Source: an uncultured Actinomycetes bacterium (GTDB lineage Bacteria > Actinomycetota > Humimicrobiia > Humimicrobiales > Humimicrobiaceae). Taken from it: 64,000 bases of DNA. Location of the stretch: assembly GCA_963847665.1 (NCBI GenBank), contig CAWKAO010000003.1, positions 85,453 through 149,452 on the forward strand. Reading direction: 5' to 3'. Below, piece by piece: positions 13,500-35,694 of this stretch. Numbering within the stretch: the first letter of the stretch is position 1; the number at the start of each line of letters is the position of its first letter. The notes below the pieces were generated by a model. The model was not told the DNA's origin. It worked only from the letters and a program-made list of their open reading frames with translations, and ran no database searches. The position numbers and the translations under genes were made by a program.

Positions 13500-13604
13500 G
13501 CAAATTATAGATAAAACCTAATATTTCTTTACTTTGTAAATAAAATGTTTTATTTTAGAAAAACTATTTTTACTAAAAACCCGATAATACAATAGAGCAG
13601 TAAT

Positions 13605-15723: not shown

Positions 15724-16230
15724 TTATTTTACTGCTTTCAGGATAAACCCTGTTGTAAGGATGTCACTATTCACATTTAAAAGATTGTTTTCTTCAGCTT
15801 TTATTTCCTGTTTTACGAGATTTTTGAGATTATTACTTATGAATTTTATTTTTTCTTTAAAAAAAATATCTTTATCAATTTTTTTAAACCTCTCAAGATA
15901 TTTTTCCATATCGATTAAAAATTGGATACTACGGTAAGTACCCTGAAAATAAACGGATACTTCCCTGAAGCCAATCTCCCATAATTTTATGCTGAGCCAC
16001 TTGTATGAATAGACATTTAAATTATTTATGGGCTCAGTACCAAAAATAAACGGGCATGAAAATATTAGTTTTCCCCCATCATTTAGGTGATCATATATTT
16101 GTTTAAGGTCTTCCTCCGGATTTTCTAAATTATTATCCTTTATTATCGCGACATCATATTGTTTTTTGTTTAGATCACAATTGCCATAAAAGCAGATATC
16201 GCTGTCTTTCCTTAAATCCAGCGATCTCAT
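15724..16230 (-). CDS. Remnant of a class I SAM-dependent methyltransferase (C-terminal half only)
   Basis: 'YDVAIIKDNNLENPEEDLKQIYDHLNDGGKLIFS' matches motif II / post-II of the Methyltransf_11 family. A TAG lies 2 codons upstream of the Met and no GxGxG motif I is present in any frame upstream. Overlaps the 3' end of the next gene by 56 nt. Confidence 0.4.
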   Translation of the reverse strand: MRSLDLRKDSDICFYGNCDLNKKQYDVAIIKDNNLENPEEDLKQIYDHLNDGGKLIFSCPFIFGTEPINNLNVYSYKWLSIKLWEIGFREVSVYFQGTYRSIQFLIDMEKYLERFKKIDKDIFFKEKIKFISNNLKNLVKQEIKAEENNLLNVNSDILTTGFILKAVK

Positions 16231-17200
16231 TTTCTATAAAATGATCATTAAAAAAATCCCTGAGAGAAAAATCACCGGTCTCATTGACAACTGCTTTAGC
16301 AGCATCGATGCTTTGGAAGACTGCCTCCGAAAGCAGGCATCTGTTAATATAGTCTATCCACTGATCTGAAGTCGTTCTCTCTATATTCTTATACTTACCT
16401 TCAGTTTTTAATATTCCTCTGCCTAGATGCATATAAACCACATTATTATCATCATCAAATGCTCTTGTCGAATTAATATTATATATCTCCAGGGTCTCAG
16501 GTATAAGGTCCACTGATTCAGGTTCATCAAATGTATTTCTCGCAGCAAAGACCCCATAGTCATTTTTTAAAAACTCATGTATCAGCTTGTCGCCTATATC
16601 ATAAGCGGGCAGTTCAGGCATAAAACTTAAATTCAATTTTTTATAAAGTTGAAAATCGATAAGATATCCACAAACATGAAGGACGCCCTCTGGTACCCTT
16701 TCTTTTGTCAATCTAAAACCAGAAGCCCTGATCTTATTGTCTAGTTTTGAGAGCAGAAATTGCAACCATCCATATTTACAGACAACTGTATCTGAATGAA
16801 ACGTCACAACGTATTTTGCATTCTGATCTATTAGCCTTACCCCGACTTCCATTGCAATTCCATTAGAGTAAGAACCTCTTTCCTTTGGTTCGGTACGGAT
16901 GAACACCAGATTTACATCATTTAATTCATTCATCCATCCCAGGTTTTCAACAGGAGAATGGTCATCTATTACCCATAGCTCATAGGGAATATCTGTAAAT
17001 TTTTTAATACATTCTATACTTAGCCTCGTAAGAATCGATGCATCTTTATTAGGCTGGTAACTGACGATCAGTATTTTAGGAGCATCGGCAGGTCTTCTAT
17101 TATTTGCATTATATTTTATTTCATACTGTTTCCCATCAAATTCCAAGATTGTGTTTAGATATTTATTGCTTTCTAACCAGTTTTCCATCTTATTCCTCAT
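16175..17200 (-). CDS. Putative GT-A-fold glycosyltransferase
   Basis: 'KILIVSYQPNKDASILTRLSIECIKKFTDIPYELWVIDDHS' gives an N-terminal Rossmann-like pattern with a DxD-type motif. Weak family assignment. Confidence 0.45.
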   Translation of the reverse strand: MRNKMENWLESNKYLNTILEFDGKQYEIKYNANNRRPADAPKILIVSYQPNKDASILTRLSIECIKKFTDIPYELWVIDDHSPVENLGWMNELNDVNLVFIRTEPKERGSYSNGIAMEVGVRLIDQNAKYVVTFHSDTVVCKYGWLQFLLSKLDNKIRASGFRLTKERVPEGVLHVCGYLIDFQLYKKLNLSFMPELPAYDIGDKLIHEFLKNDYGVFAARNTFDEPESVDLIPETLEIYNINSTRAFDDDNNVVYMHLGRGILKTEGKYKNIERTTSDQWIDYINRCLLSEAVFQSIDAAKAVVNETGDFSLRDFFNDHFIENEIAGFKERQRYLLLWQL

Positions 17201-18240: not shown

Positions 18241-18975
18241 TTAGTTCCTTTTTGACTTTAATAATTTATTATACCTGTCACAGATCAATGATGTATCCCT
18301 GGGGGCAATAAAAGAAACATCTTTAACTGAAATTGTCCCGATCTTTTTTCGTTCGTCCAGTCCACAGGCATATTCGTAAACTGTTTTCCTTTTTCCCCCA
18401 ATATGAATAATGCCAGTTATATTTTCTCCATTTTTAAGTATATCAATGATCTTTTTTGCAATTACACTTACATTTTCACGGCTGGTCCACTGATCAATAA
18501 AAGCTTTTTCATATGGGAATACATTTGGACCAAAACTTGTCCTGATTATCAAAGAATTATTGTAAAGATGTACGGCGCATTCTCCCCCCAGTTTGGACCA
18601 TGCATATTTATTCACCGGGAATACAGGATCGTATTCTTTATATTTCCCCTTGTCACCTTTGAAAACATAATCGGTTGAAATATAAATAAGCCATAAGTTA
18701 TATTTTAAACATAGCTTAACAATATTAGCCGTACCAATAATATTTATATCTATACCTTTTATAGGGTCTTCATTGACTTTTGGCGGAGAAGTAAATGCAG
18801 CAGCATGTATTACTAGCTTATATTTTTTACTCCTTTATAAAATTATCCATCTTTTTATGGTCAGTGATATCAAATTCTCCATGTGAGGGAAAATACGCTT
18901 CCGGGACAAGTTTTTTGAGTTCACTTCCCAGCATACCGCTCCCACCTGTAATAAGAACTTCTTCGGGATTAATCA
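18241..18975 (-). pseudogene. rmlD: dTDP-4-dehydrorhamnose reductase (RmlD) interrupted by a +1 frameshift in an A6 run
   Basis: The N-terminal 49 codons ('MINPEEVLITGGSGMLGSELKKL...DNFIKE') end at TAA (18827-18829, minus strand). The RmlD reading continues in the +1 frame ('KKYKLVIHAAAFTSPPKVNED...NKYAWSKLGGE...') down to 18241. The shift falls within the A6 run 'gagtaaaaaatat'. Confidence 0.7.
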
Positions 18976-19066
18976 TTTAGTATCCTATAAATTATTTGAA
19001 TAAATAAAATTATTAGAACGTTCGTCATTAAGCCAACCGTTTAGAGTAAGGCCAGTTTTGTCTTTT

Positions 19067-21020: not shown

Positions 21021-22250
21021 ATGAAAAAAATAATGATACTTGGCGCTGGAGATTTCCAGGTCCCCTTGATCAAAGAAGCAAAAAAAATGGGCCTGAACGT
21101 GATCGTTATAGGTCCAAAGGGAGAATATCCGGGGTTTGAACTCGCAGACCAGAAATACTACCTTGATGTAAGAGACAGGGAAAAGATACTGGAATTAGCA
21201 AAAAATAACCATATTGACGGTATAGCCACAGACCAAACGGACTTACCTGTCAGGACTGTGGCATATATCGCTGAAAAATTAGGTTTATATGGAATAGGTT
21301 CAGACACCGCAAATCTATTTTCAGACAAATACCTTATGAGGGAAAAATGCAGAAGTCTGGGTCTACCGGTTTTGAATTATGGACTTTTTAATGATATAAG
21401 CTCCGCAACGAAATATTGTGAAAAATACGGTTTTCCGAAGGTCATAAAACCTGTTGATAACCAGGGAAGCAGAGGGGTTTTTAAAATATATAACATTGAT
21501 GATCTTGAAAAATTTTTTGTACAGGCACAGAATTATTCTTCAAATAACTCTGTCCTTATCGAGGAGTTTATAGATGGTTGGGAATTTGTAGTGGATAGCC
21601 TGACTATAAATCATGAATATAAAAACCTCATAATAGGTGATTCACATCTCTTTAAAATAAGAAATATGTTTATTCCTAAAAAAAGATTATTCCCTACGAT
21701 TGTCGGTAAAGAAACTCAAGATCAAGTCCTTGAAATGGACAGAAAAATAATAAGGGGGTATGGTCTAAGAAATGGGATCACTTTTGCTGAATACATCTGG
21801 GATAAAAAAACCAATAAAATATATTTACTGGAAATAGGGGCCAGAGGACAGGGTGTTTACATATCTTCTGACATAATCCCTGAATTTACCGGATTAAATG
21901 TTAACAGATTTATTTTAAATACGGCGATAAGAAATTCTTATAAAGTCGTGTTGAGTATCAACAAAAAAATATCTGCAGGTTACATGGCTTTTTATCTTCC
22001 CGAAGGAATTGTGACAGATATATCTGGTATAAAAAAACTAAATAAAATTGATGGAGTTATCGGCCATAACTTATATTCAATCAAAAAAAATCAGCAAATT
22101 AGATCTATCGATGATAAATCTGCAAGAAAGACTATAGCTCTTAAGGCTTATAATAGAAAAGAGCTTGATATTTTAATAAATAGAGTTAAATCTATTTTAA
22201 CTATAAAAGTAAAAACACAAAAAGGTTTAAGCTCAATAGTATGGGATTGA
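21021..22250 (+). CDS. ATP-grasp domain carboxylate-amine ligase
   Basis: 409 aa. Pre-ATP-grasp Rossmann N-terminus 'KIMILGAGDFQVPLIKEAKKMGLNVIVIG' followed by an ATP-grasp core ('KPVDNQGSRGVFKI', 'IEEFIDGWEF'). Confidence 0.75.
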   Translation: MKKIMILGAGDFQVPLIKEAKKMGLNVIVIGPKGEYPGFELADQKYYLDVRDREKILELAKNNHIDGIATDQTDLPVRTVAYIAEKLGLYGIGSDTANLFSDKYLMREKCRSLGLPVLNYGLFNDISSATKYCEKYGFPKVIKPVDNQGSRGVFKIYNIDDLEKFFVQAQNYSSNNSVLIEEFIDGWEFVVDSLTINHEYKNLIIGDSHLFKIRNMFIPKKRLFPTIVGKETQDQVLEMDRKIIRGYGLRNGITFAEYIWDKKTNKIYLLEIGARGQGVYISSDIIPEFTGLNVNRFILNTAIRNSYKVVLSINKKISAGYMAFYLPEGIVTDISGIKKLNKIDGVIGHNLYSIKKNQQIRSIDDKSARKTIALKAYNRKELDILINRVKSILTIKVKTQKGLSSIVWD

Positions 22251-22562
22251 TTAAAATAGCATAAACGATCTTTATATTTAATTATAAATCTTATGGTTTT
22301 TAAAGTTTTCCTTAAAAATAACAAATTAAACATATTTTTAATCCTTGTCTATCTTGTTTTACCGTTTATTTTTTTTGAAGGCAGCTTCAGGTTAAACACT
22401 CTTATACAGGGTTTTGCAGATACCAATAACTCACAGATCCCCATTCTTTTACTGAAGATTAATACTATCAAAGCATTACAGTTTCCGTTCTGAAATCCTT
22501 ATGAATTAAACGGGTTTCCATTTTTTGCTAATATTCAGTCTGGTATTTTCTATCCAGTCACA

Positions 22563-24722
22563 TTGGTATTGGGATTAATATTTCCACTCATAACTGCTTA
22601 TAATCTGACAGTATTTCTCAGCTATTCACTTGCAGGTATTTTTATGTACCTCTTTTTAAATGAATATAAATTGGAGAAAGCAGCTAGTTTTACAGCGGGT
22701 CTTATTTTTATGTTCAGCGGTTCACTGATCGCACATAAAAGCCACCTAGTGTTACTCAATACAGTAATCTGGTTACCACTAATTCTGCTTTTCCTGGAGA
22801 AATTTTTCAGATCAAAGAGATTTGAGTTTCTACTTTTAGCATCTATTGTTTACAGCATAGCTTTTTTTGGAGGGGCAATTCATACATTCCTTATCATTTC
22901 TTTGATTTTATTGATTTTTATTGTTTTTAAGGTATTTTTTTCGGACTACGGTAGCAATTATTATTTCCTTTATTCACTTATTATTTTCATAATAGGATTT
23001 TTAATAGTTCTTGCACAGGCACTACCGGCAATCGAGCTTGTATCACTAGCACGAAGTGAAAAACTTTCATATGAGGGATTCACGCTCAATTCATACAATC
23101 CTAAAATGGCTGTCACTTTATTCTTCCCTTATATTTTTGGTTTTAAGCATAATTTGACCAGTGCTTTTTATTATCCCCACTGGTTTGGTTATGATGAAGT
23201 TGGTGAAGTACTTCGTTACTTTGGTATTTTTACCATTCCAGTTTTTATATTTGGTTTCTTCAAAAAAGACAAAAATAAATATTTATGGTTCTTTTTATTG
23301 TTTATTTCGATATTCCTCTTAACCGGTAAATATAATCCACTTTATAAGATAGTATATTATATACCTGTTTTGAATCTATTCCATTTTCCTGCACGCGATT
23401 GGTTGGAATTTAGCTTCGCCTTTGCCATTATCTGTGGATTTGGTTTCAATGACCTGGTCAAAGCCGATAATAAAAAATTTAAAAACATTATATCAGGAAT
23501 TATAATATTCTTTACCTTTGTACTGGCATCATTTTCAGTATTCTATTTCCTGTTTAAATATAGTCTAAAAGATGAGATATCGGGTTTTTTCAGCAGTTTT
23601 TTAAAAAAGGAATTCTTAAGTGAAAGCATAGATATATCAAACTACGCAGTATATATGCCCCTTATTATAATTGGTACTCTAATAGTATTTTTGATCATTT
23701 TCCTATATAAAAGAAATAAAATAACATATGCCCTGCTTATAATATTTATTTTTTTGGACCTTTTATCAGTCGGCAGGGTATATGATGATAATACTAAAAA
23801 CATCATTTTAAATAAATCCGATTATGAAGATGGATTCATATATAAAGAAAACAAGGAAGAATCATTCAGAGTCTTTGTAATAGATGAGATACCCGAAAAG
23901 GATCTGTTTAAACCCAATATGAATGTACAATTTGGCCTGGAAAGTATTGACGGTTACGAGCCGTTATTTTTAAATGATTATTCTGATATGTTTATGAAAA
24001 AATTTATAAATTATGGCTTGATATGGAGTGAAGATTATAAAAAATACTTAATCAATAATAATCTGCTTTCAGTCTCAAACTGCAAATACATAGCTTTGAG
24101 TAAAGAGCACCTGAATGATTATATAAATCATATTAGGGAACAATCAGGTGGAAGTGATAGTGGATTAGAAGATTATGAGATTATTTACGAAGCAAATAGC
24201 AGTATAATACTGGAAAATAAGAAGTATCAGCCAAGGTTTTATTTTGCTGGAAAACTTATAAATGTCCAGAACATAGATGAGGCAAAAGATATAATCTGGG
24301 ATGATAAGGCTGGCGATGTAAAGTTCGATCCTTCATCAGATGTTATTGCCGAAAACATCAATTTTGAAAATACATCCTTTGAAGCACAGAACAACAGGCT
24401 GGAAATAATATCCAGCAAAAACAACAGTATTGAATTGGATATATCTGCACAGGAAAATTCATTTCTTGTATTTTCCGATACTTTTTACCCCGGGTGGAGA
24501 GCTTATGTGGATGGAAAAGAGACAGAGATCTACAGGACAAACGGTCTCTTTAAAGGAATATATATACCTGCAGGCAAACACATGATAGTTTTTAATTTTA
24601 TGCCCAGCCATTTCATTTTATACAGTACGATAAGTCTAATAAGTTTTTCAGGATGTATTTTAACGATAATAATATTAATTGCCAGAAGGAGGAGAAAAAG
24701 TATTTCTATTTCAGGACAATGA
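22563..24722 (+). CDS. YfhO-family GT-C glycosyltransferase (glycopolymer glycosylation type). The N-terminus is probably incomplete.
   Basis: Polytopic membrane protein with the YfhO C-terminal domain 'FYPGWRAYVDGKETEIYRTNGLFKGIYIPAGKHMIVFNF'. The same frame is open upstream from 22293 except for a single TGA at 22491-22493. Confidence 0.7.
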   Translation: MVLGLIFPLITAYNLTVFLSYSLAGIFMYLFLNEYKLEKAASFTAGLIFMFSGSLIAHKSHLVLLNTVIWLPLILLFLEKFFRSKRFEFLLLASIVYSIAFFGGAIHTFLIISLILLIFIVFKVFFSDYGSNYYFLYSLIIFIIGFLIVLAQALPAIELVSLARSEKLSYEGFTLNSYNPKMAVTLFFPYIFGFKHNLTSAFYYPHWFGYDEVGEVLRYFGIFTIPVFIFGFFKKDKNKYLWFFLLFISIFLLTGKYNPLYKIVYYIPVLNLFHFPARDWLEFSFAFAIICGFGFNDLVKADNKKFKNIISGIIIFFTFVLASFSVFYFLFKYSLKDEISGFFSSFLKKEFLSESIDISNYAVYMPLIIIGTLIVFLIIFLYKRNKITYALLIIFIFLDLLSVGRVYDDNTKNIILNKSDYEDGFIYKENKEESFRVFVIDEIPEKDLFKPNMNVQFGLESIDGYEPLFLNDYSDMFMKKFINYGLIWSEDYKKYLINNNLLSVSNCKYIALSKEHLNDYINHIREQSGGSDSGLEDYEIIYEANSSIILENKKYQPRFYFAGKLINVQNIDEAKDIIWDDKAGDVKFDPSSDVIAENINFENTSFEAQNNRLEIISSKNNSIELDISAQENSFLVFSDTFYPGWRAYVDGKETEIYRTNGLFKGIYIPAGKHMIVFNFMPSHFILYSTISLISFSGCILTIIILIARRRRKSISISGQ

Positions 24723-25694
24723 TATTTTCTTTCTTTTACCAGTGAAGATAAATGGCAAGCCTACGATACCGGTTATTACACTCACAGAAAAAATATATAG
24801 TGAAAGTGCTGTTGCTGATTCTGCAGATAGTCCATATTGACCTAGGATTGAAATATATGATATCTCCCTTAACCCTATACCTGAAATAGAGATCGGTATC
24901 ACGGTTATAAACCACACTATACAACTTGAAATGCTTATATCAAAAAAGGATAACCTGATACCAATAGAATAAGCAATGAGATAATTAATTGCAAAAAAAA
25001 TAGTATGTATAACAAAACTTAAAAAAAAGAGCATAAATAAAAATCCGGGGATTTTTTAAATAAAACTTTATGATCTCATCAATCAGAATAAAAGTCTCCT
25101 TTATTTTAATAATGATCTTTTTATCCGTCTTCCATTTTTTAAGAATCCTTTTAATATCGCCCCTTTTAACAAATAATATCAACAGGATCGACAATATACA
25201 GATGGATAGAAAAATACACCAGACTATTAGTTTTATTTTTAATTGAAAAAAGGGCTCAGTGAGAAAGCAGCAACCCCTAGAATAAATAATGAAAGAAAAC
25301 CTATCGTACGGTCAAAAAAAATCGATAAAATATTCCTTGTCTTGTTATAAGAAGTGTCGCTTCCCACCCAGACAGCTTTTACAATATCCCCTCCAAGAGC
25401 CCCTGGCATAACAAGGTTAAAGGTCGAGGACATCATCATGTACCTGAAATAATCCCAATTACTTAACTGCCTGAGGTCATCTGTATTTACGAGCTTCCAC
25501 CTTATACCATTCAGCCAGACTCTTAAGATTGACATTAAAACAGAGACGGCCAGAATCCAAAAGGAGATTTTTTTTAACGTATTGAAAAGTATTCCAAAAT
25601 CAACCTTATAAATAAGGAAAACAACAGAAGCAGCTAATACCAGTATTCTCAAAAATATGAAAATCAGCTTTTTTGTTTTGCCCTGCATAACCAT
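24711..25694 (-). pseudogene. Flippase-like (LPG-synthase TM-region / UPF0104 family) membrane protein, split across three frames
   Basis: The N-terminal fragment (25239-25694, 'ILRVWLNGIRWKLV...PGALGGD') and C-terminal fragment (24711-25034) are bridged by a third-frame ORF (24985-25194). Same architecture as the intact paralog at 60234-61274. Confidence 0.5.
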
Positions 25695-25717
25695 GAATGA
25701 AATCCGTTATGGTATTT

Positions 25718-26870
25718 TTATATTTCTTTTATATGGTAGCCCGTTTTTTCAAACCAACCATTGGAGTCTCTTACAATTTCACCGGGTTCGTAATAAAACT
25801 GGAATTCAAGGCATGATCCTTGATCGAAACCATCAGGAATATTGAACGCTTCACCTGGTCTCTGGTGAAAGAACTCGATCTGGTATCTTTTATCTATTTG
25901 CTCTGAAATGACTGGAATTTGCTTTTCTGAAGTGATTTTACCCAGCAATCTGTCGATATTCAAGCCCAGTAAATCGATCCCATACCTGTATTTTATGATC
26001 TTCCATATATGTCCACCATCAAACCTCGGGGCAGCCTCTATAAGATTAAATTCCCCATCGTTATATTTGCCCTGCATATATATGCAACCATTTTTAATTT
26101 TTGATATTATAATAAAATTTTTAACAAATTCCACGATCTTTTCTTGATCCTTCGGTGGTATTTCACTTGGAATGATATGATTTTTTAACAACTCCGACAG
26201 GCATATCAGGTCGTATTATCTCCGGTATACTTTCCTCTACAAGTATCCTGTCACTTATGAATGTAAAAAGTGCGATCCCCCGATAGACAAAAACAAGTAT
26301 ATTAAATTCACTGCCATTTAAAAATTCTTCGACTATCACTTTTTAAAACCTGGATTGTGCACTGCACCTTAAATAAATATTTTACAGTTCGCTGCTTGCC
26401 TGTGACTTTTCTTACTCCACGCTGTCCCTGGCTGTTAACAGGTTTTATTATTGCAGGAAATTTATCCCATTTTTCAAAATCCGCAGTTTAGAACCAGTCT
26501 TATATTTTACTGGTCTGAGATTATTGGCTATTCAAAAATCTTCGGAAATCTCCCTTATTTATAAACATTTGGACCTGATCTAATCAAAGTCAAATGGCAG
26601 ACCAAGCTTCCTCAGACACTTCTGCTATTGCCGGCATTGCAATATCAGAACCAGTGGAATAGACAAGATCAAAATTATTTTTTTTGTATAATCAAGAACT
26701 GATTTTATATCTGTAATATTTATCTGCTCAAAATGGTCAATAAACGGGAGTGCCATACCCTCTTTTTGCCAGCTTAAACCGTGGACTTTAAATCCCTGTT
26801 TTTTGAAATAAAGGATCGCATCGATCTGGGGATGTGTTATACCAAGTATCAAGACTTTTTTAGAATCCAT
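25718..26870 (-). pseudogene. Decayed paralog of the ATP-grasp ligase
   Basis: N-terminal fragment (26625-26870, 'KKVLILGITHPQIDAILYFKKQGFKV') and C-terminal fragment (25718-26191, ATP-grasp C-domain). The intervening 26192-26624 translates to 'IKPVNSQGQRGV...', matching 'IKPVDNQGSRGV' of the 21021 gene, but is riddled with stops and frame changes. Confidence 0.6.
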
Positions 26871-26891
26871 TTTTTACTTTTAGCTCTGCAC

Positions 26892-27648
26892 TCATATCTC
26901 CAGATTATTATAAAGCTTTTTCCAGAGTTTCATAAATTCCACTGTTTCTGGCATCCTTGGTATTTCCAATGAATTTTGCATAAATAGCCTGATTTTTGCG
27001 GGTATCTGTGAAAGAACCATTATTTTATTTCCAAGTATGATTGACTCCTGTATATTATGTGTAATAAAAACAATCGTTGTCTCAGTTTTCTGCCATATTT
27101 CGATCAGTTCATTTTGAAGGGTATTACGGGTCTGTGCATCTAGTGCCCCAAATGGTTCATCCATCAATAGGATTTTAGGTTTTATAGCAAATGCTCTTGC
27201 AATCGCCACTCTCTGACGCATTCCACCTGAAAGCTGGCGTGGATAAGCATTTTTAAATCCTGATAATTTTACCATCTCCAGAAAATGCAGGGCTATTTCC
27301 AATCTCTCTGCTTTTTTTAACTTCCTGAATTTAAGGTTTAGGGGATAAATTATATTCTCAAGAACTGTCTTCCAGTGAAAAAGTTGATCATAACCCTGGA
27401 AAACCATTATCCTGTCAGGTCCTGGTTTGTTTACAGGTATTGCCCTCGACTTTAATATTGCCTTCGTCTTTTTTTTCAAAGCAGCTTATACATCTTAGTA
27501 AAGTGGTCTTGCCACAACCTGATGGTCCCAGTACAGTCAGGAAGTCGCCATATTCAAGAGCAAGCGATACGCCATTTAGTACAACTAATGTCTTGTTGTT
27601 TATGGTGAACTTCTTTTTTAGATCTTCTATTTCAAGTACAAATCCCAT
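26892..27648 (-). pseudogene. ABC transporter ATP-binding protein (NitT/TauT family, SsuB/TauB-like) with a frameshift
   Basis: The Walker A fragment (27415-27648, 'GPSGCGKTT') and the Q-loop/signature/Walker B fragment (26892-27479, 'LSGGMRQRVAIARA', 'ILLMDEPFGALD') overlap in different frames. The junction is near 27440, where a 1-nt indel converts 'KVEG|IPVNKPGPDRIMVFQ'. Confidence 0.6.
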
Positions 27649-28437
27649 TCAATCAGAGATCCCCCATTTTATAATGGTCCTTTTTTCAACCTGTTTCATC
27701 AAAACTTCTTCGATCATTATTCCAATAATCACTATTACAAAAAGACCTGCAAATACGTCGGGTATTTCAAGGAAATACCTTTTCTGATATATATACCATC
27801 CCAGTCCACCTATCAGACCAGTAGCTCCAAATACCATTTCAGCCCCCACCAGTGCCCTCCAGCTCCTGGACCATGCTATTTTTAGACCTGAAAAAATATG
27901 AGGGAAAGCATTGGGTATCATCACTGAAAAAACAAGATGTAATTCTGACATGCCCAGACTCCTGCCCAATTCTATCTGCGTTTTAGGTACCGTGCGAAAT
28001 CCTGCAATTGAATTTACAATCACCGGCCAAATAACAGAATGGACGATGATTATTATTATTGCTTTTGCTCCCAACCCGACAATAAGCATTACTATCGGTA
28101 AAAGCGCAATACCGGGAAGTGGGTGCATTATGGATATTACCAGGTCAAGGATATGCGCAAAACTTTTATTGACCATATAAAATGCTGTCAGGATGAAAGC
28201 AGCGATCATACCGATCGCAATACCAGTAAATATTAGATACAAGGAATAGAGCGTATACTTTATGATCTCGCCTGAAATGATATTTTTCCACAATGCAACA
28301 AAAATAATAGATACGGGGGGTATAAGATTTGTTGAAGAAATAACAAACCTGGCCAGAAGTTCCCAAATTAAAAATACTGAAGCCAAAAATCCAAGCTTTA
28401 TAAATATTCCGGAGTATTTTTTCCTAAATGAAACCAT
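27649..28437 (-). CDS. ABC transporter permease (NitT/TauT family, SsuC/TauC-like)
   Basis: 262 aa, 6 TM segments, with the EAA-like loop 'ELGRSLGMSELHLVFSVMIPNAFPHI'. Confidence 0.8.
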   Translation of the reverse strand: MVSFRKKYSGIFIKLGFLASVFLIWELLARFVISSTNLIPPVSIIFVALWKNIISGEIIKYTLYSLYLIFTGIAIGMIAAFILTAFYMVNKSFAHILDLVISIMHPLPGIALLPIVMLIVGLGAKAIIIIIVHSVIWPVIVNSIAGFRTVPKTQIELGRSLGMSELHLVFSVMIPNAFPHIFSGLKIAWSRSWRALVGAEMVFGATGLIGGLGWYIYQKRYFLEIPDVFAGLFVIVIIGIMIEEVLMKQVEKRTIIKWGISD

Positions 28438-28485
28438 TCCAAGAATTCATTTTCTTCAAATATAGCCTGATAATAACGTATTAAT

Positions 28486-29463
28486 TCAATTTGCTTTCGA
28501 AGGATCAAGGTTATCCCAGATAAGTTCCGAGACATCTGTGGTTGTCTTCTGGACATAATCCGAGCTTTTCATAAAATCCAGAAACTTCAACATACCTTCT
28601 GGATTTTTAGAAAAAACCACTCCAGGCCATGTCAATTGCTTATATACTTCTTCACTTTCAAGGTCCATATCTTCTGCAAGCAATTTTGCTGCTTCTTCTG
28701 GATTTTCATTTATCCAATTTATTGAGTCATCAAGAGCTGAATCAATCGCTTTATAAAGGGAAGGGTTGCTGTTTTTAAATTTTTCAGTGCTGATGACAAC
28801 TAAAAAAGTAAATTGGGAGCCAAAGCAATCTTTTTCAGCATCAAGTACCTGATGTATGCTCTTATCTTCAAGCTCCATAAAAATATAGGGAGGTGATGTA
28901 AAATGAGCATCTATCTCTATCTTATTGATAAGAGCATTTGCTGCGTCTGGATGTGCCATCGCGACAATCTGATTATCAAGAGCTTTTGGGTCACCAAGCT
29001 GTTGTTTACATGCCATAGATAGGAGGATATGCTGGATACTTCCCGGCCCGGGTAGGGCTATCTTCATTTCTGGCTTTATATCATTGAGTGTCTTTATTTC
29101 TTCGTGATATGTCTGTAAACCAAGCGGCATCTTACATAGGGCTCCTAATACCTTAACGCCCAGATCTTTATTCCAGGATATTAAAAAAGGTGGAACACCC
29201 ATACTGCCGATATCGACTGCTCCGGATGCTATTGCTTCATTTATCGTCCCGCCCGATCCTAACTGGACCCATTCCACCTCAGCTCCCTCATAATATTTTT
29301 CAATAAGGTTTTTCTTTTGCATTATCATAAGAGGAGCATACCCCAGTCCGAATTGTTGAGCTATTACTACTTTTTGTGATTCCTGGGCAGCAGACTTGCA
29401 TCCCGGTAAAACAAAGATTAATATAAAAAAAATAACTAAAAAAATTATAGAATATTTCCTCAC
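28486..29463 (-). CDS. ABC transporter substrate-binding lipoprotein (NMT1/SsuA/TauA-like)
   Basis: Signal peptide with lipobox 'LPGC'. Periplasmic-binding-protein type II fold features. Confidence 0.7.
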   Translation of the reverse strand: MRKYSIIFLVIFFILIFVLPGCKSAAQESQKVVIAQQFGLGYAPLMIMQKKNLIEKYYEGAEVEWVQLGSGGTINEAIASGAVDIGSMGVPPFLISWNKDLGVKVLGALCKMPLGLQTYHEEIKTLNDIKPEMKIALPGPGSIQHILLSMACKQQLGDPKALDNQIVAMAHPDAANALINKIEIDAHFTSPPYIFMELEDKSIHQVLDAEKDCFGSQFTFLVVISTEKFKNSNPSLYKAIDSALDDSINWINENPEEAAKLLAEDMDLESEEVYKQLTWPGVVFSKNPEGMLKFLDFMKSSDYVQKTTTDVSELIWDNLDPSKAN

Positions 29464-29685
29464 AAGAACACTCCTTGGATTTAATTTTTTTAATCTGAAA
29501 AATTATATCATTTGTAAATAATTTTATAAATACTTTATTCATTAATCAGAGGATCTGATTACTAGTTAATGGTTTTTAAGTATTAAATATTTTTATTCTT
29601 TGCTAAAATGCCATAGAACACAATTTTTAAATTTGACTATATCTTTATATATTAAAATGCTGGATTATAAGAAGGATAAAACTCC

Positions 29686-30357
29686 TTGGGGTCAGTAGAT
29701 ATATTGGGATTCAGTCCAGGTTTTATCAGTATGGTAATTACTGTGCTTATAAAATGCTACGGCAAGGATCTGAACATCCGAATAATAAAAAATATTGCCA
29801 TTGAGGGAAATATCCCTTACAAAATATCCGGACCTGCTTATGATACGATAATGCACACTGAATGGGACGCGGGACACGTCTACAATCGAAAAAATTTTCT
29901 TGGTGTCGGTAATGTATTATCAAAAAAAACAGTATTTGATTTTTTTTATAAAAACTATTCACTGGATTTCAAAATGTATTGCAATATTATTCATCCAGGT
30001 GCAGATATCGCAGAAAATATAAAAATAGGATTTGGAAATTTTCTTAATTATGGTGTAACTATTGGCCCGTTTTCTGAAATAGGTAATTTCGTCACTTTTA
30101 ACAGACACGTCGGTATTGGTCACCATACTCAGATATCGGATTTTTGTGTAATAAATCCAGGGGTCAATATTGCAGGTTTTTGTGAAATTGGAGAGGGTTC
30201 GTCTATAGGTATGGGTTCAAACATTATAGATGGAATAAAAATCGGTAAAAACGTTATAATCGGCGCGGGTTCACTAGTAAATAAGGACATAGAAGATAAT
30301 GTTGTAGCATATGGAATTCCCGCAAAAACCATCAGGGTAAATGACCAAATAAAGTAA
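29686..30357 (+). CDS. Sugar N/O-acetyltransferase of the NeuD/PglD/WeeI family (left-handed beta-helix)
   Basis: N-terminal alpha/beta domain followed by hexapeptide repeats: 'IGEGSSIGMGSNIIDGIKIGKNVIIGAGSLVNKDIEDNVVAYGIPAK'. Confidence 0.7.
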   Translation: MGSVDILGFSPGFISMVITVLIKCYGKDLNIRIIKNIAIEGNIPYKISGPAYDTIMHTEWDAGHVYNRKNFLGVGNVLSKKTVFDFFYKNYSLDFKMYCNIIHPGADIAENIKIGFGNFLNYGVTIGPFSEIGNFVTFNRHVGIGHHTQISDFCVINPGVNIAGFCEIGEGSSIGMGSNIIDGIKIGKNVIIGAGSLVNKDIEDNVVAYGIPAKTIRVNDQIK

Positions 30358-30386
30358 AAATTTTTATCTTAAATTGAATATCAGAA

Positions 30387-31220
30387 ATGTCTAAACTAAT
30401 AATAAATTTTGCTCCTACAGGTATGAAGCCAACGAAAGACTGGACCCCTCATGTGCCAATAACACCAGATGAAATAATAGAGCAGGTGCACGAGGCATAT
30501 GATCTGGGCATAACTATTGTACACCTGCATGCAAGAGACAGCCAGACTGGAAAGCCGGATTATAGAGCTTTTATCTATGAAAAAATTATCAGTGGCATAA
30601 GAAAACACTGTAAAGATTTGATTATCAGCCTTTCAACAAGCGGCAGGTCTTTTTCAGAGTTCGAAAAAAGATCAGAGGTATTGCAGCTAAAACCTGATTT
30701 AGCGTCACTAACAATGTCATCACTGAATTTTCTTCATGATTCTCATATGAACGATCCTGAAATGATAAATAAATTAGCTTGTAGGATGAATGAATTAGGA
30801 GTACACCCCGAGATCGAATGTTTTGATAGTGGGATGGTAAATTATGCCAAATACATGATAAGTAAAAACATCCTGAAACCACCTCTTTATTGGAACCTTT
30901 TGTTTGGAAACATTTTTACTGCCCAGCCTGATCTGGCAAATATAGGCATTACAGTAAGGGATCTTCCCCCGGACTCTATTTATGCCTTTGCTGGTCTGGG
31001 AGCTTCTCAACTTAAAGTATCTACATATGCTATTGCTTCAGGTGCCCCAGGTGTCAGGATAGGGATAGAGGACAATGTGTATTACGATGCTAAAAAATCT
31101 TTGTTTGCATCAAACTTCATGCTGGTAAAAAGAATCCACCAGATCTCTGAGATTTTTGAAAGAGAAATCATGAAACCTTCAGAATTCGGAGCAATGGGAT
31201 TTTATAATTCAAAAAAATGA
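30387..31220 (+). CDS. BKACE-family enzyme (3-keto-5-aminohexanoate cleavage enzyme-like, DUF849)
   Basis: 'LIINFAPTGMKPTKDWTPHVPITPDEIIEQVHEAYDLGITIVHLHARD' is the characteristic BKACE TIM-barrel N-terminus with the metal-binding H-x-H. Confidence 0.65.
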   Translation: MSKLIINFAPTGMKPTKDWTPHVPITPDEIIEQVHEAYDLGITIVHLHARDSQTGKPDYRAFIYEKIISGIRKHCKDLIISLSTSGRSFSEFEKRSEVLQLKPDLASLTMSSLNFLHDSHMNDPEMINKLACRMNELGVHPEIECFDSGMVNYAKYMISKNILKPPLYWNLLFGNIFTAQPDLANIGITVRDLPPDSIYAFAGLGASQLKVSTYAIASGAPGVRIGIEDNVYYDAKKSLFASNFMLVKRIHQISEIFEREIMKPSEFGAMGFYNSKK

Positions 31221-33229
31221 AACTTTTTTATCGTTCAAGTCCTTATAAGTATATTATACTGGCAATTTTAATAAACCTTCTTTTGTTCTCACTATTTTTT
31301 TGTTTTATTACACCGAGATATCAGTCAAACGATGACAGTACAATGGAAGGGATCGCTTCAGGTATAAGGACAGGACAGCCTTCTGAATACCTGGTTTTCA
31401 TTGACATATTAATAGGAAAATTGCTTGTTTTTTTGTATAGCAACCTTATAAATATAAACTGGTACCCGGTTTTATTTTATTTACTGCATTTCATATCAAT
31501 GTCAATAATGTGTTTTTGCCTGCTTTTAAGAAAAAAGTTTTTACCGGGACTTGCCTTTTATTTGCTTATCTTTGCATTTTTTGAATTGTTTCTGCTTACA
31601 AATATACAGTTTACTACAACTTCATTTGTTTCTGCTATATCAGGTGTAATATTATTTTTGTCATTTCTTGATTCCAGGGGCTCCAGGTTCTATATCGCAA
31701 CAGTTATAAGTATTTTTTTATTTATAATCTCAGAATTTATAAGACACTATATGTCTTTCCTGGTACTCGGACTTTTTTCTATTTTGTTATTATTTAAGTT
31801 CATTAAAAAACCGGGGCTTAAAATACCAGTTTTTCTGATAATAACAGCTGTTCTTTTTACTTTGATTTATTTCCACAATATTAACTACTACCAGAAAGAT
31901 CCTAAATGGGCTTTTTATATCCAGTATAATAAGCTTAGACCCGAAATCAGTGATTATCCGCAAAAAAAATATAGTGAAAGTACAAAGGATGTTTACAGGA
32001 TTGTGGGTTGGAGTGAAAATGATGTCAAAATGTATAAATCCTGGTTTTTTAGTGATCTTGAATTGTATTCCCTTGAAAAAGTCCAATATATTGTAGACAG
32101 CATCAGTAATGATAACGGGCCAAAAGAGACATTTGATGTGTGGAAGAAGGCATTTAATGATCTGAATTTGAAAATCAGGATTTTTACAATATTTTTTTTA
32201 ATAGTTCTGATTATTGAAGCAATAAAAAACAGGAACAAATATCTTTTATTTACGACAATACCCCCTTTTATAATATCTTTATACTTTTCATATACCAACA
32301 GGTTGCCCAACAGATTATTTATACCACTAATATTTTTTACCATCCTCACATCCGCTTTTTTTAAAAGTGATTTTGTTTTCCTGACTGCACTAAAAAGTAA
32401 GAAAAAGACATTTATGCTTATATCACTAGCAGTCTGTATTATCATATTCTCTTCAATTTTTATTACCACTTCAATCGCAAGCAGGACAAACTTTGAAAAA
32501 CAGGAAGAATTTAATGAAAAAATAAGCAGGATGAAAGAACATGACTTTATATATGTCAGATGGGGTGCTGCGCCATTGCATGATAAAAAAATTTCATTTA
32601 CCATCCCGGAAAATCTTAAAGGTCTCAAGTATATACAGCAGGGATGGTTGCAGCACAGCCCGATATACAATGAGATACTACTTAAATATTCAATTGAAAA
32701 TATCTATACAGATATAATCCTAAGGAATGATATCAGGGTCTTATGTACCAAGGATCAGGGTAAATTATTAAAAATATTTATTGAAGAGCACTATGGTGTC
32801 TATATTGAAAGTAGTATCGATTCGAATTTTAATGGGGGTTACAATATAACAAGTTTTTACATTCCTGACGGTCCTTTAAGCCTTCTTTTTAAAAGGGCAT
32901 ATTTCTACAAATATGGTAAAGGTGCAAGTAATGATGAAGCTTTAAAATATTATAAATTACTTCAAACAGGAGGCCTTCGATCGGATGCAATCGGCATTGA
33001 AATAAAAAAAATACTTCTAAGTGAAGGCTCGCTGCTCGAAAGTAAAAGTGATAAAGAATTTTTAATAGCATTGTATGCTGTGTTCTTTGATAGAAAACCT
33101 GATATTACAGGACAGGTCATGTGGTTACAGAAATTAAGTAACGGCTACTCACGCTCAGATATTATTGATTCTTTTCTGGCATCGGTTGAATTTCAAAAAA
33201 AATATAAAGATAGCCTGGATACTTTGTGA
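31217..33229 (+). CDS. Polytopic membrane protein (GT-C-like N-terminal region) with a C-terminal DUF4214 domain
   Basis: About 11 TM segments, acidic motif 'QSNDD' in the first extracytoplasmic loop. C-terminal 'FLIALYAVFFDRKPDITGQVMWLQKLSNGYSRSDIIDSFLASVEFQKKY' matches the DUF4214 consensus. Overlaps the BKACE gene by 4 nt. Confidence 0.5.
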   Translation: MKLFYRSSPYKYIILAILINLLLFSLFFCFITPRYQSNDDSTMEGIASGIRTGQPSEYLVFIDILIGKLLVFLYSNLININWYPVLFYLLHFISMSIMCFCLLLRKKFLPGLAFYLLIFAFFELFLLTNIQFTTTSFVSAISGVILFLSFLDSRGSRFYIATVISIFLFIISEFIRHYMSFLVLGLFSILLLFKFIKKPGLKIPVFLIITAVLFTLIYFHNINYYQKDPKWAFYIQYNKLRPEISDYPQKKYSESTKDVYRIVGWSENDVKMYKSWFFSDLELYSLEKVQYIVDSISNDNGPKETFDVWKKAFNDLNLKIRIFTIFFLIVLIIEAIKNRNKYLLFTTIPPFIISLYFSYTNRLPNRLFIPLIFFTILTSAFFKSDFVFLTALKSKKKTFMLISLAVCIIIFSSIFITTSIASRTNFEKQEEFNEKISRMKEHDFIYVRWGAAPLHDKKISFTIPENLKGLKYIQQGWLQHSPIYNEILLKYSIENIYTDIILRNDIRVLCTKDQGKLLKIFIEEHYGVYIESSIDSNFNGGYNITSFYIPDGPLSLLFKRAYFYKYGKGASNDEALKYYKLLQTGGLRSDAIGIEIKKILLSEGSLLESKSDKEFLIALYAVFFDRKPDITGQVMWLQKLSNGYSRSDIIDSFLASVEFQKKYKDSLDTL

Positions 33230-33323
33230 TGATTAGTTGGAATTATATAGAATACTTGCCGAATTTCAGTCATTATTAGTCACTTACATTTTAAAACAGA
33301 ACTATTTATTCTACAGAAAATAT

Positions 33324-34529
33324 TTAAATACTATTTTTGTCATCTTTAAAAAAACTTTTTATCACCTTTATTATCCTGTCCAGGTCTTCTTTATTTAAAT
33401 CATAAAAAAGCGGTAGTCTTAATATGCGATCCGATACATCTTCAGTTACAGGAAAGTCACCTGGTCTGTAACCCAACTTCGCTCCCATAGGGGATAAGTG
33501 AAGCGGCAAAAAATGGAATACAGCAATGATGTTGCTTCTTTTAAAATGATCCATCAGATCATTTCTTGTTTTTAGATCATTTAATAATATATAAAAAATA
33601 TGGCTGTTATGAGTGCAGTTATCGGGTATTACAGGTAGTCTTAAAAGTCCTTTTTTTTGAAATATTTCAAGATTTTCATAATAATGATTCCAGATATAAG
33701 ACCTTTTTTTATTTATATTATAAATTTTTTCAAATTGAGCATATAGAAAAGCAGAAAGCACCTCTGAGGGAAGGAATGATGAACCAATATCCACCCAGCT
33801 ATATTTATCGACTTCACCCCTGAAAAATTTGCTCCTGTTCGTACCCTTCTCTCTTATTATCTCTGCTCTCTCAAAAAAACTTTCATCATTTAACAAAAGT
33901 GCTCCACCCTCACCGCAAATTACATTTTTAGTCTCATGAAAGCTATAACAGCCTAGATTTCCAATACTGCCGAGATAACTATCCTTATATTTTGCTTCTA
34001 TGGCATGGGCAGCATCTTCAATAAGGATAAGGTTATAGTTTCTTGCAATTTGTACTATCTTATCCATTTCACAGGAGACACCTGCATAGTGGATCAGGAC
34101 AATAGCCCTGGTAAACGGGTTTATTGCTTCTTCAATTTTGTCTTCATCGATATTTAAAGTATCTTCCCTGATTTCTGCAAACCTTATGGTCGCATTTCTT
34201 ATGTAAAATGAGTTTGCAGCAGAAACAAAATTAAATGAAGGCATTATGACTTCATCTTCCTTTTTAATGCCAGCAAGTATTGCTGTCATATCCAGGGCAC
34301 TTGAGCATGACGTGGTCAGCAAGGCTTTTTTTACCCCATATCTTGCCTGGATAAAATCATGGCACTTTGTGGTGAAATCCCCGTCCCCGCTTATTTTTCC
34401 GCTTTCAACAGCCTGCTTTATATAGGAAAGCTCATTTCCGACTATTGAAGGTTTATTAAACGGGATCTTTGCGGTTTGCTTTTTTTCTGTTTCCTTCAAT
34501 ATATTTATTTTATTAATGTTCACTGTCAC
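33324..34529 (-). CDS. DegT/DnrJ/EryC1/StrS-family PLP-dependent sugar aminotransferase (ArnB/PglE-like)
   Basis: 'ALLTTSCSSALDMTAILAGIKKEDEVIMPSFNFVSAANSF' and 'YSFHETKNVICGEGGALL', which includes the PLP-lysine region. Confidence 0.85.
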   Translation of the reverse strand: MTVNINKINILKETEKKQTAKIPFNKPSIVGNELSYIKQAVESGKISGDGDFTTKCHDFIQARYGVKKALLTTSCSSALDMTAILAGIKKEDEVIMPSFNFVSAANSFYIRNATIRFAEIREDTLNIDEDKIEEAINPFTRAIVLIHYAGVSCEMDKIVQIARNYNLILIEDAAHAIEAKYKDSYLGSIGNLGCYSFHETKNVICGEGGALLLNDESFFERAEIIREKGTNRSKFFRGEVDKYSWVDIGSSFLPSEVLSAFLYAQFEKIYNINKKRSYIWNHYYENLEIFQKKGLLRLPVIPDNCTHNSHIFYILLNDLKTRNDLMDHFKRSNIIAVFHFLPLHLSPMGAKLGYRPGDFPVTEDVSDRILRLPLFYDLNKEDLDRIIKVIKSFFKDDKNSI

Positions 34530-35454
34530 TATTTATATTGATTGTATCTCTTATGACATACTGAGGCTGTTTATTCTGTGACATAAAAATCCTTCCAACA
34601 TATTCACCTATTAAGCCTACTGAGATCAGCTGTATTCCCGAAAAGAAAAGGATAGCAACAATTGTCGAAGTCCAACCTGTAACAAGAACCGAATCTAACA
34701 TTTTTCTTATCAGTAATATTAATGCGATTATAAAACCTGCTGCAGCACATAATAAACCAAAAAATAATGCGATCCTTAAAGGTTTTACTGAAAAGTTAGT
34801 AAATCCGTTAAACCATAGCCGCAATAATTTAATGAAACTGTAATTCGACTTTCCATGTGCTCTTTTTTTATGCTCTATGTTTACCACTCCTATATTGCTT
34901 GTAATTCTTAAAACAAGACCAGGCAGGTAGGGATATGGTCCCTGGTATTCCAGTATCTCTGTAGCAAGGTATTTTCTAATTACAAAATAACTTGAAGTTT
35001 TTAAATTTCTTGGCTTTTTTAACAGGATATTTGCCATAACAGCATTGATGGTACTGCCAAATTTTCTGAAAATGTTGTGTTTTTTATTAATATAATTTGC
35101 ATATATGATATCATAGCCTTCATCTAACTTTTTTATAAGTTTCCAGATCTCTTCAGGAGGAGTCTGGAGATCATCATCCATAAAAACTGCAACTTCGCCC
35201 TGTATAAACTTTAAACCTGCGATCATTGCATTGTGCTGGCCAAAATTTCTGGAAAGGTTTACAAGTTTGATAGAGTTGTATGATTGTGCTAACTTTAAGC
35301 ACCTGCTGTAACTTGAATCAGTACTCCCGTCGTTCACAAGAATTATTTCATAAGAAACCTTTTCATCTAATTCCCTTAGAAGTCTACCAACGACTTCATC
35401 AATTGTGTTTTCTGAATTATAAACCGGTATGATTATGGATAACATAAAAGACAT
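34513..35454 (-). CDS. Polyprenyl-phosphate sugar synthase, GT2 (GtrB/ArnC/DPM1-like) with two C-terminal TM helices
   Basis: 'MSFMLSIIIPVYNSENTI...ILVNDGSTDSS...VFMDDDLQTPPEEI' plus a C-terminal TM pair. The ORF is open to 35586, but the GT2 consensus starts at the Met at 35454. Overlaps the aminotransferase by 17 nt. Confidence 0.8.
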   Translation of the reverse strand: MSFMLSIIIPVYNSENTIDEVVGRLLRELDEKVSYEIILVNDGSTDSSYSRCLKLAQSYNSIKLVNLSRNFGQHNAMIAGLKFIQGEVAVFMDDDLQTPPEEIWKLIKKLDEGYDIIYANYINKKHNIFRKFGSTINAVMANILLKKPRNLKTSSYFVIRKYLATEILEYQGPYPYLPGLVLRITSNIGVVNIEHKKRAHGKSNYSFIKLLRLWFNGFTNFSVKPLRIALFFGLLCAAAGFIIALILLIRKMLDSVLVTGWTSTIVAILFFSGIQLISVGLIGEYVGRIFMSQNKQPQYVIRDTININSDSEH

Positions 35455-35694
35455 AAAAATATTCTTTCTATTTATGTTTATTAATACTTCGGCAGAAATT
35501 TTAATTACTCTTATTTTAGACATTATATAATAATTATCCATATTTTTTAGTGCTAATAATGATATTAAAGGAAGTATTCTTACCATTTATGTTAAGAATA
35601 CATGCTGATATAATGAGACTGCCAACAGTTACCCAGTAAATATCACTTGCCGAAGCTGGAAAAAAGAACAGTTAAGCAAGATTTATAAATTTAT

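Follow-up and report, generated by a model that had tools for sequence, protein, structure and literature searches.

The window analysed here, a 64-kb stretch of DNA, is a single large cell-surface glycan biosynthesis island of an uncultured low-GC bacterium, and three consecutive genes in it have broken reading frames. The chances are about even that these broken frames stem mostly from consensus errors, made by a metagenome assembly in a glycan island that varies between strains. This artefact reading is slightly favoured over real decay, and localised damage is compatible with assembly error. The original prediction was of localised gene decay rather than uniform sequencing error; the strong localisation holds, but the damage pattern is at least as error-like as it is decay-like.

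The three genes are part of a five-gene module that encodes three importer subunits (binding protein, permease, ATPase), an ATP-grasp ligase of 383 aa and a membrane protein of the flippase-like kind:

24711 to 25694, minus strand: gene for a flippase-like membrane protein (LPG_synthase_TM, PF03706 / TIGR00374), split into three pieces that use two frames
25718 to 26870, minus strand: ATP-grasp ligase gene of the 383-aa family, with seven +/-1-nt frameshifts between 26690 and 26180
26892 to 27648, minus strand: gene for the ATP-binding subunit of a NitT/TauT-type ABC importer; a single +1-nt lesion at 27441 shifts its frame
27649 to 28437, minus strand: importer permease, intact (BPD_transp_1, 77.5 bits)
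28486 to 29463, minus strand: importer substrate-binding protein (NMT1/SsuA-like), intact (NMT1, 49.5 bits)

Related loci contain an intact homologue of each focal gene (tblastn E = 1e-94 to 1e-111), and frameshift-aware alignment to these homologues confirms that all three genes are broken on the minus strand. There are 10 frameshifts between 24711 and 27648, every one a single-base insertion or deletion. Measured against the homologues in the relatives L005 and L006, two lie in the flippase-like gene, seven in the ATP-grasp gene and one in the ATPase gene.

The flippase-like gene carries a -1-nt lesion near 25241 and a +1-nt lesion near 25026 (T7 to T8). It is indeed split into three pieces, but these occupy two frames and not three, as first described. 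Its fragments score 82.7 and 44.1 bits in Pfam (cut-off 33.4 bits). With its 2 frameshifts corrected, the protein shares 63% identity with the L005 homologue, which is intact at 313 aa, and scores 62.2 bits on TIGR00374 (cut-off 43.2 bits) over profile positions 3-292 of 323; this places it in the LPG_synthase_TM / flippase-like family (PF03706, TIGR00374) above the curated cut-off.

In the ATP-grasp gene the frameshifts lie near 26690 (A9 to A8), 26610, 26585, 26532, 26483, 26343-26364 and 26180. All seven fall inside 511 nt (P = 0.003); the initial 60 and final 152 codons are free of lesions. The gene was thought to have multiple stops and shifts; the shifts are present, but there is no clear in-frame nonsense codon and the stops result from the frameshifts. 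The reading toggles between two frames six times, an alternation that is not significant by estimate (about 11%). Compensated, functional frameshifts can be rejected, because the actual frame meets a stop at 26625 ahead of the first restoring shift. Once repaired, the protein aligns along its whole length (100%), at 57% identity, with the intact 383-aa proteins P0001 and P0002, a type that carries PF13535 and PF07478. With 29.3 bits on PF13535 (cut-off 27 bits) it falls within the ATP-grasp superfamily, and its frameshift-dense centre retains 31 of 34 family-invariant residues.

The ATPase frameshift was first described as near 27440 and away from homopolymers, and this is borne out: an additional A at 27441, in GGCAATA, lies outside long homopolymers. 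Both fragments match ABC_tran (Pfam), and the source gene call, P0134, is a 171-aa C-terminal fragment. The repaired ATPase is 69% identical to 254-aa homologues. The NMT1/SsuA-like binding protein, BPD_transp_1 permease and ABC_tran ATPase occur together, which identifies the importer as a member of the NitT/TauT family. Identity to the L005 and L006 counterparts is 71-72% for the binding protein (325 aa in those relatives) and 68-71% for the permease. The nearest NCBIfam models are the SaoA, nitrate and taurine ATPases for the ATPase, TauC/SaoP for the permease and SsuA for the binding protein (93 bits); since all hits are under the equivalog cut-offs, the models assign no substrate to the importer.

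Damage is not confined to the module. Four further genes of the island are broken:

18241 to 18976, minus strand: RmlD-like reductase gene, with one frameshift near 18830; three-frame translation shows two frames
22260 to 24722, plus strand: YfhO-family membrane glycosyltransferase gene, with a premature TGA at 22491-22493 in a conserved Trp codon
35689 to 37334, plus strand: gene for a PMT_2-like membrane glycosyltransferase, shifted twice by +1-nt insertions (36070 and 36734)
38581 to 39901, plus strand: UDP-glucose/GDP-mannose dehydrogenase gene, with two +1-nt insertions and one in-frame TAA

The genes flanking the focal run were originally taken to be intact; this is correct for the permease and the substrate-binding protein but not for YfhO. 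The YfhO gene reads QFPF*NPYELNGFPFFANIQSG, while its syntenic orthologue in the relative L010 has QFPFWN at the corresponding site; the lesion is a TGG to TGA substitution. YfhO homologues are about 790-950 aa long and the source gene call, P0249, is 719 aa. An alternative genetic code in which TGA encodes Trp or Gly can be dismissed, as TGA terminates 15 of 42 intact genes and the open reading frames are long under table 11. In the dehydrogenase gene the lesions are a +1-nt insertion in the A-run 38613-38619, a TAA at 38815-38817 and a +1-nt insertion near 39297; this TAA and the YfhO TGA are the two nonsense substitutions of the window. Once repaired, the dehydrogenase matches all three Pfam domains end to end, the RmlD-like protein scores 126.5 bits on RmlD_sub_bind, and the PMT_2-like protein is 63% identical, with 2 frameshifts, to the intact paralog at 43662-45311.

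The focal genes had been suggested to be a redundant duplicate module that is being lost, a spare of an intact module elsewhere in the window. This is very improbable. The window does have intact genes for an ATP-grasp (at 21021) and for a flippase-like protein (at 60234), and the broken PMT_2-like gene at 35.7 kb has three intact paralogs at 53-61% identity. However, the broken ATP-grasp aligns with the 21021 copy at the superfamily level only (blastp, 24% identity over 351 aa). The nucleotide alignment proposed for dating the duplication, 25718-26870 against 21021-22250, returns no match, and tblastn yields a 33-aa motif only; dating by this route is therefore impossible, and the pair lacks both the high protein identity and the nucleotide similarity of recent paralogs. 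For the flippase-like gene, blastp finds no similarity between the broken copy and the one at 60234. The window also lacks a second NitT/TauT importer; its sole other ABC ATPase is a Wzt exporter with 23% identity.

Comparison with related genomes also argues against a redundant duplicate. In relatives an ATP-grasp of 383 aa stands beside one of 390-406 aa, and the two are separate enzymes. The broken gene is the counterpart of a distinct enzyme, which is sited with the same NitT/TauT-type importer in related metagenome genomes. The low identity already refutes the duplicate reading for the focal genes, as far as sequence comparison can.

In total, seven genes have 18 lesions, all of them in the stretch from 18.2 to 39.9 kb; the rest of the 64-kb window is free of them. 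The 16 frameshifts are all +/-1 nt, and the broken genes differ from their homologues by at most 3 codons in length. Ten of the 17 lesions counted at the time of the test fall within 2.9 of 64 kb (binomial P = 6e-10). The damage is non-uniform, in agreement with the original prediction, but it extends outside 24.7-27.7 kb. Uniform sequencing error is ruled out by the absence of lesions from the flanks (1-15.7 kb and 39.9-64 kb, 39.8 kb together; P = 6.5e-8 under uniform placement). A search for tRNAs and structural RNAs found none in the window.

Most lesions lie outside long homopolymers. The window has 47 A/T runs of at least 8 nt, distributed over its full length, and 45 of them are unbroken; assembly quality is thus generally good, and errors would require a local cause, which counts against the artefact reading. 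A/T runs end at 8-9 nt also in three JGI relatives, which were assumed to be Illumina-style; the limit is a property of the lineage, and truncated homopolymers can be discarded as a basecaller signature.

Phase variation, in which homopolymer slippage toggles surface-glycan genes and the off state was sequenced, is the least credible of the explanations. The setting in a surface-glycan island is in its favour, as are the two lesions found within 8-9-nt runs (A9 to A8 near 26690, T7 to T8 near 25026); in addition, a contig of another sequencing run ends in the T-run 36072-36076, which could mean a length polymorphism. Against this, the other eight of the ten focal lesions lie in runs of 1-6 nt or outside runs, and long tracts are avoided in this lineage: the 64 kb contain three of 9 nt and none longer. 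Each focal gene other than the ATPase gene carries several lesions, and one tract change restores no frame; the single ATPase lesion lies outside any tract, leaving no focal gene with one toggling tract.

Real recent decay is a serious but less probable explanation. Under this explanation the glycan-decoration module and other island genes have been inactivated because the surface structure is unneeded or counter-selected, and the organism is at an early stage of loss in which remnants are not yet deleted. It is supported by the confinement of the damage to seven genes of one functional island, with none outside, and by the two nonsense substitutions. Most indels lie within short base runs, as expected from polymerase slippage. 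As the three focal genes form one module, one hit would release the others from selection. Neither the ATP-grasp nor the importer occurs in L010; the clade can therefore do without the module, which also favours decay.

The lesion spectrum is less easily explained by decay. In the ATP-grasp gene, seven indels in 511 nt with no nonsense codon, no deletion longer than 1 nt and nearly all invariant residues retained are an odd combination. Free-living bacteria with large populations seldom carry pseudogenes with several lesions. Bacterial indels in nature are usually deletion-biased, but in the window 10 insertions can be typed against 4 deletions. Including the flippase-like and YfhO genes of L010 (8 against 1), there are 18 insertions and 5 deletions; an earlier tally gave 16 insertions among 21 (P = 0.027).

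Selective constraint on the repaired genes shows no relaxation of the kind expected of a genuine pseudogene. The repaired proteins have dN/dS of about 0.1, equal to that of intact neighbours, although these tests have low power for very recent events and are blind to recent neutral divergence of up to roughly 5%. Compared with its L010 counterpart, the broken flippase-like gene of the window has a dN of 0.19 and a dS of 1.9, the same values as intact DegT and GT2. When window-to-relative divergence is scaled by the divergence between L005 and L006, the broken genes are not above their intact neighbours.

L010 also bears on the choice between error and decay. Its contig contains gene fragments throughout, and its flippase-like gene has eight +/-1 frameshifts at positions different from those in the window; the protein is still 71% identical to that of the window. 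Decay would require independent and very recent multiple hits to this gene in a second lineage. The name of the L010 contig, contig_59209, looks like the output of a Flye-like assembler.

Consensus error is slightly preferred: all indels are +/-1 nt, constraint is not relaxed, the flippase-like gene of L010 has eight other frameshifts, insertions are in excess and the damage is patchy. The ten focal indels and the similar lesions of four nearby genes would then be mostly consensus errors, arising where a long-read-type metagenome assembly passes over low-coverage or strain-mixed patches of a variable island. The genes would be intact or nearly so in the living organism, and real change in gene content of the island is likely too. 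Two observations do not fit: stop-creating substitutions, of which there are two, are not predicted by indel-type error, and relatives differ in real gene content, as the absence of the ATP-grasp and importer from L010 demonstrates.

Assembly errors, including internal stops, are known to raise pseudogene counts (PMC11017572), and Nanopore-derived metagenome genomes contain indel-driven false pseudogenes, more commonly at low coverage (PMC8103633). The focal genes resemble these false pseudogenes (PMC11017572, PMC8103633) in that single-base indels interrupt proteins that are fully conserved once repaired; the damage is also patchy, and a related contig is full of the same lesion type. In contrast to those cases (PMC11017572, PMC8103633), few of the lesions here fall in long homopolymers, no lesions occur in the remainder of the window, and two are substitutions.

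For decay, a precedent is the O-antigen cluster of Yersinia pestis, which has five inactivated genes (PMC3521224). As in the window, small lesions disable several genes of a glycan locus while their neighbours are intact (PMC3521224). Unlike in that cluster (PMC3521224), here there are up to seven hits per gene, an excess of insertions and no measurable relaxation of constraint. Y. pestis is also a recently bottlenecked pathogen, whereas the window comes from an environmental bacterium that is uncultured.

Other sources were also searched for copies of the broken stretch. The sequencing runs ERR15459714 and ERR12037369 contain this population; a literature search for run and assembly accessions gave no hits. 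The source contig is 708 kb long and its proteins are singletons. We infer a long-read origin for the source. Exact look-ups of three fragments and of flanking proteins gave no usable independent copy, and two scans of JGI metagenome contigs gave no copy. Setting aside the source's own fragments, the closest allele in protein searches, intact or broken, is 57% identical for the ATP-grasp and 70% for the ATPase. The genome collection searched contains no genome of the same species. An identical permease protein is present on a contig of another sequencing run. The k-mer contig of the other run spans about 27567-36074, as mapped via gene coordinates; it ends near lesion patches on both sides, one end being inside the T-run with the 36070 frameshift. 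These ends, the length of the source contig and the fragmented contig_59209 are indirect hints of error-prone reads or of coverage that may be locally low or mixed.

The ATP-grasp gene and the importer stay together in the relatives L001-L006, in the same kind of glycan island; L005 adds the flippase-like gene. Metagenome genomes of low-GC 'Actinomycetota' show this linkage, and a spirochaete one shows it in looser form. For the functions of the module we can only infer that the importer probably takes up a small organic substituent, that the ATP-grasp probably attaches it via an amide bond to a sugar or lipid-linked glycan, and that the flippase-like protein probably translocates the lipid-linked intermediate across the membrane. 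It is conceivable, though rather unlikely, that the module is an undescribed route of surface-glycan decoration, comprising import of an external small molecule, ligation by the 383-aa ATP-grasp and export by the flippase-like protein.

Two known systems offer partial parallels. Transmembrane glycosylation systems of Gram-positive cell walls combine a GT2 enzyme, a small flippase and a YfhO/GT-C enzyme (PMC8035078, PMC7389260), and the window likewise has GT2 enzymes, flippase-like proteins, a YfhO-family protein and six PMT_2-like paralogs. However, its flippase-like gene is of the LPG_synthase_TM type and not GtrA/GtcA, and its module includes an ATP-grasp and an ABC importer, both of which are absent from those systems (PMC8035078, PMC7389260). 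The C-terminal domain of Campylobacter jejuni Cj1438 is an ATP-grasp amide ligase that decorates capsule sugars (PMC11800379). The window enzyme, also an ATP-grasp in a glycan cluster, would plausibly couple a sugar carboxylate to a small amine or an amino acid; the likeness drawn is one of gene context and possible role. The fold of Cj1438C is TupA-like, and a GT2 domain is fused to it (PMC11800379), while the gene here is standalone and paired with an importer.

Whether they are artefact or decay, the broken frames are an ordinary finding. If they are artefact, runs of 'pseudogenes' in metagenome genomes can flag strain-variable or poorly polished islands instead of biology, and gene-decay claims from a single assembly require read support. 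If they are real, a sediment-type bacterium is losing one surface-glycan decoration pathway, a theme familiar from pathogens that adds little new. Less likely, the lesions are real and polymorphic, reflecting an ongoing population-level switch-off of glycan decoration under phage or grazer pressure. The more useful by-product is the recurrent linkage of an ATP-grasp ligase with a NitT/TauT-type importer in glycan clusters, joined in L005 by the flippase-like gene.

At 24711-27648 the minus-strand ORF map falls apart into short pieces with Pfam matches to LPG_synthase_TM (the flippase-like protein), ATP-grasp and ABC_tran. These three focal genes were reconstructed by eye from the three-frame translation. 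Used as a query, the reconstructed ATP-grasp protein finds intact 383-aa proteins at 57% identity across its full length; the contigs bearing these matches yielded intact counterparts for each of the three, and the lesions of these genes were mapped by frameshift-aware protein-to-DNA alignment. In this alignment, identity to the homologues is 63% for the repaired flippase-like protein, 58% for ATP-grasp and 69% for the ATPase, and all three exceed family profile cut-offs.

Broken genes in the window (coordinates, strand, product and lesions)
18241-18976, minus strand: RmlD-like dTDP-sugar reductase; single frameshift near 18830
22260-24722, plus strand: YfhO-family protein; premature TGA at 22491-22493, interrupting QFPF*NPY
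24711-25694, minus strand: flippase-like protein; -1 nt near 25241, +1 nt near 25026 (T7 to T8)
25718-26870, minus strand: ATP-grasp; seven frameshifts, near 26690 (A9 to A8), 26610, 26585, 26532, 26483, 26343-26364 and 26180
26892-27648, minus strand: ABC ATPase; one additional base at 27441
35689-37334, plus strand: PMT_2-like membrane glycosyltransferase; +1 nt at 36070, +1 nt at 36734
38581-39901, plus strand: UDP-glucose/GDP-mannose dehydrogenase; three lesions: a surplus A in the A-run 38613-38619, parting the ATG from the Rossmann motif; TAA at 38815-38817; +1 nt near 39297

Read by hand against the homologues, all focal lesions are single-base (six gains and four losses); all three genes lack convincing in-frame nonsense substitutions and gaps longer than one codon. 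The flippase-like gene, described in the original prediction as split over three frames, is in three pieces but uses just two frames. The proposed run of three consecutive broken genes stands in that the frames are truly broken in the deposited sequence and the damage is strongly localised; however, breakage reaches other genes. The YfhO-family gene, earlier taken to be intact, is broken by a TGA where L010, a syntenic metagenome relative, reads QFPFWN and encodes a conserved Trp. This genome uses TGA as a regular stop codon; the source annotation gives only an N-terminally truncated protein of 719 aa starting at TTG 22563. The repaired RmlD-like protein scores about 126 bits on RmlD_sub_bind. 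At 15724-17200 (minus strand), 341-aa and 168-aa ORFs lie in different frames with a 56-nt overlap, and the latter resembles a methyltransferase-type C-terminus; the pair is a further candidate for a frameshifted gene.

The broken ATP-grasp gene had been regarded as a paralog of the gene at 21021-22250; the two are 24% identical with no nucleotide match. In related loci the 383-aa ATP-grasp and a 390-406-aa ATP-grasp are separate genes, and the window's 409-aa enzyme is about 31% identical to the latter. Judged by sequence, the broken gene is not a recent paralog, and the redundant-duplicate reading fails for the focal genes. The PMT_2-like gene at 35689-37334 has three intact paralogs (at 43662, 53719 and 61311; 53-61% identical) and is plausibly the sole case in the window where loss of a redundant copy fits.

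The window is AT-rich (GC about 33%) and densely packed with cell-surface glycan genes throughout; no RNA genes were found across it. It encodes a Wzm/Wzt exporter, Wzy-like proteins, an initiating sugar transferase, many GT1, GT2 and GT4 enzymes, sugar-nucleotide enzymes, six PMT_2-like paralogs, one YfhO-family protein and two flippase-like proteins. The stretch at 41.8-62.9 kb holds an expanded PMT_2-like set (43662, 47381, 53719, 55365, 61311), two PD40 beta-propeller proteins and GT2 genes at 46549, 52704 and 59232, the last adjoining the flippase-like gene at 60234; the region resembles a series of multi-component glycosylation sets in parallel. A/T homopolymers comprise 44 runs of 8 and three of 9, with none longer. 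This abrupt limit recurs in three relatives (L001, L005 and L006) and looks like lineage-wide avoidance of long A/T runs.

In total, 18 lesions (16 frameshifts and two stop codons) affect seven genes at 18.2-39.9 kb; none were found at 1-15.7 kb or 39.9-64 kb. Statistics used 17 lesions, omitting the third in the dehydrogenase; conclusions are the same with 18. At least 10 of the 17 fall in the focal 2.9 kb (P = 6e-10) and none in the outer 39.8 kb (P = 6.5e-8).

The broken genes show no excess divergence. The distance from window to relatives is 1.6-2.4 times the L005-L006 distance for broken and intact genes alike, and is smallest for ATP-grasp. The frameshift-dense centre of ATP-grasp keeps 31 of 34 residues invariant in nine homologues, and its flanks keep 25 of 26 (Fisher P = 0.63). 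L010 (ENA ERZ25039527 contig_59209, 12380-13600) is syntenic with window positions 22304-25642 and 30386-35447 at about 70% nucleotide identity. Between the two, the broken flippase-like gene (dN 0.19, dS 1.9) is indistinguishable from intact DegT (0.185, 2.1) and GT2 (0.216, 2.3).

The broken frames have about an even chance of being explained by consensus errors, in a glycan island that is strain-variable or thinly covered. Insertions outnumber deletions, and seven hits lie inside 511 nt of ATP-grasp (P = 0.003), which also favours artefact. So does the flippase-like gene of L010, which carries eight other +/-1 frameshifts (seven insertions) at positions different from the window's, amid abundant fragmented genes. 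As biology, two and eight recent hits in one gene of two lineages with no relaxation are unlikely; multiple hits in the same gene of both are expected of noisy consensus. An 8,523-bp k-mer contig from run ERR15459714 with the same genes spans about 27567-36074 (gene-coordinate mapping), its ends lying 81 nt inside the ATPase gene and in the T-run holding the 36070 frameshift. These ends, close to lesion patches on both sides, suggest read-level heterogeneity there. Assembler, platform and coverage can produce false frameshift and stop-codon pseudogenes (PMC11017572); nanopore-derived metagenome genomes bear them too, most at low coverage (PMC8103633).

Genuine, very recent gene decay is somewhat less likely. 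In its favour, base substitutions account for two lesions, both creating stop codons, every hit lies within one functional island, and the assembly is clean elsewhere (45 of 47 A/T runs of at least 8 nt are unbroken). L010 truly lacks ATP-grasp and the importer: its flippase-like gene is followed directly by BKACE (which has lost about 60 internal codons), and the acetyltransferase is also absent. Glycan clusters are well known to lose several genes to inactivation (PMC3521224). Artefact and decay are both ordinary readings; the remaining probability is shared by duplicate loss, phase variation and other causes.

In L001-L006, related loci labelled Actinomycetota (29-35% GC), the 383-aa ATP-grasp directly adjoins a NitT/TauT-type importer (NMT1/SsuA-like binding protein, permease, ATPase), amid genes for GT2, DUF4214 and DegT proteins, a methyltransferase and a second ATP-grasp. 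L005 additionally has a flippase-like gene next to the set; in L009, a GC-rich spirochaete locus, ATP-grasp immediately follows the ATPase. This linkage indicates that the three broken genes and two intact transporter genes form one functional module. The window order is binding protein, permease, ATPase, ATP-grasp, flippase-like, whereas relatives have ATP-grasp, binding protein, permease, ATPase (in L005 with the flippase-like gene upstream); BKACE and NeuD-like acetyltransferase genes adjoin it in the window only. All NCBIfam matches fall below equivalog cut-offs. By analogy with ATP-grasp amide ligases of capsule loci (PMC11800379) and multi-component transmembrane glycosylation systems (PMC8035078), the importer would take up a small substituent, which would be ligated to a glycan intermediate at the expense of ATP before the intermediate is flipped. 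The one feature that merits follow-up is this conserved importer and ATP-grasp module of putative function, which in the window and L005 also includes a flippase-like gene.
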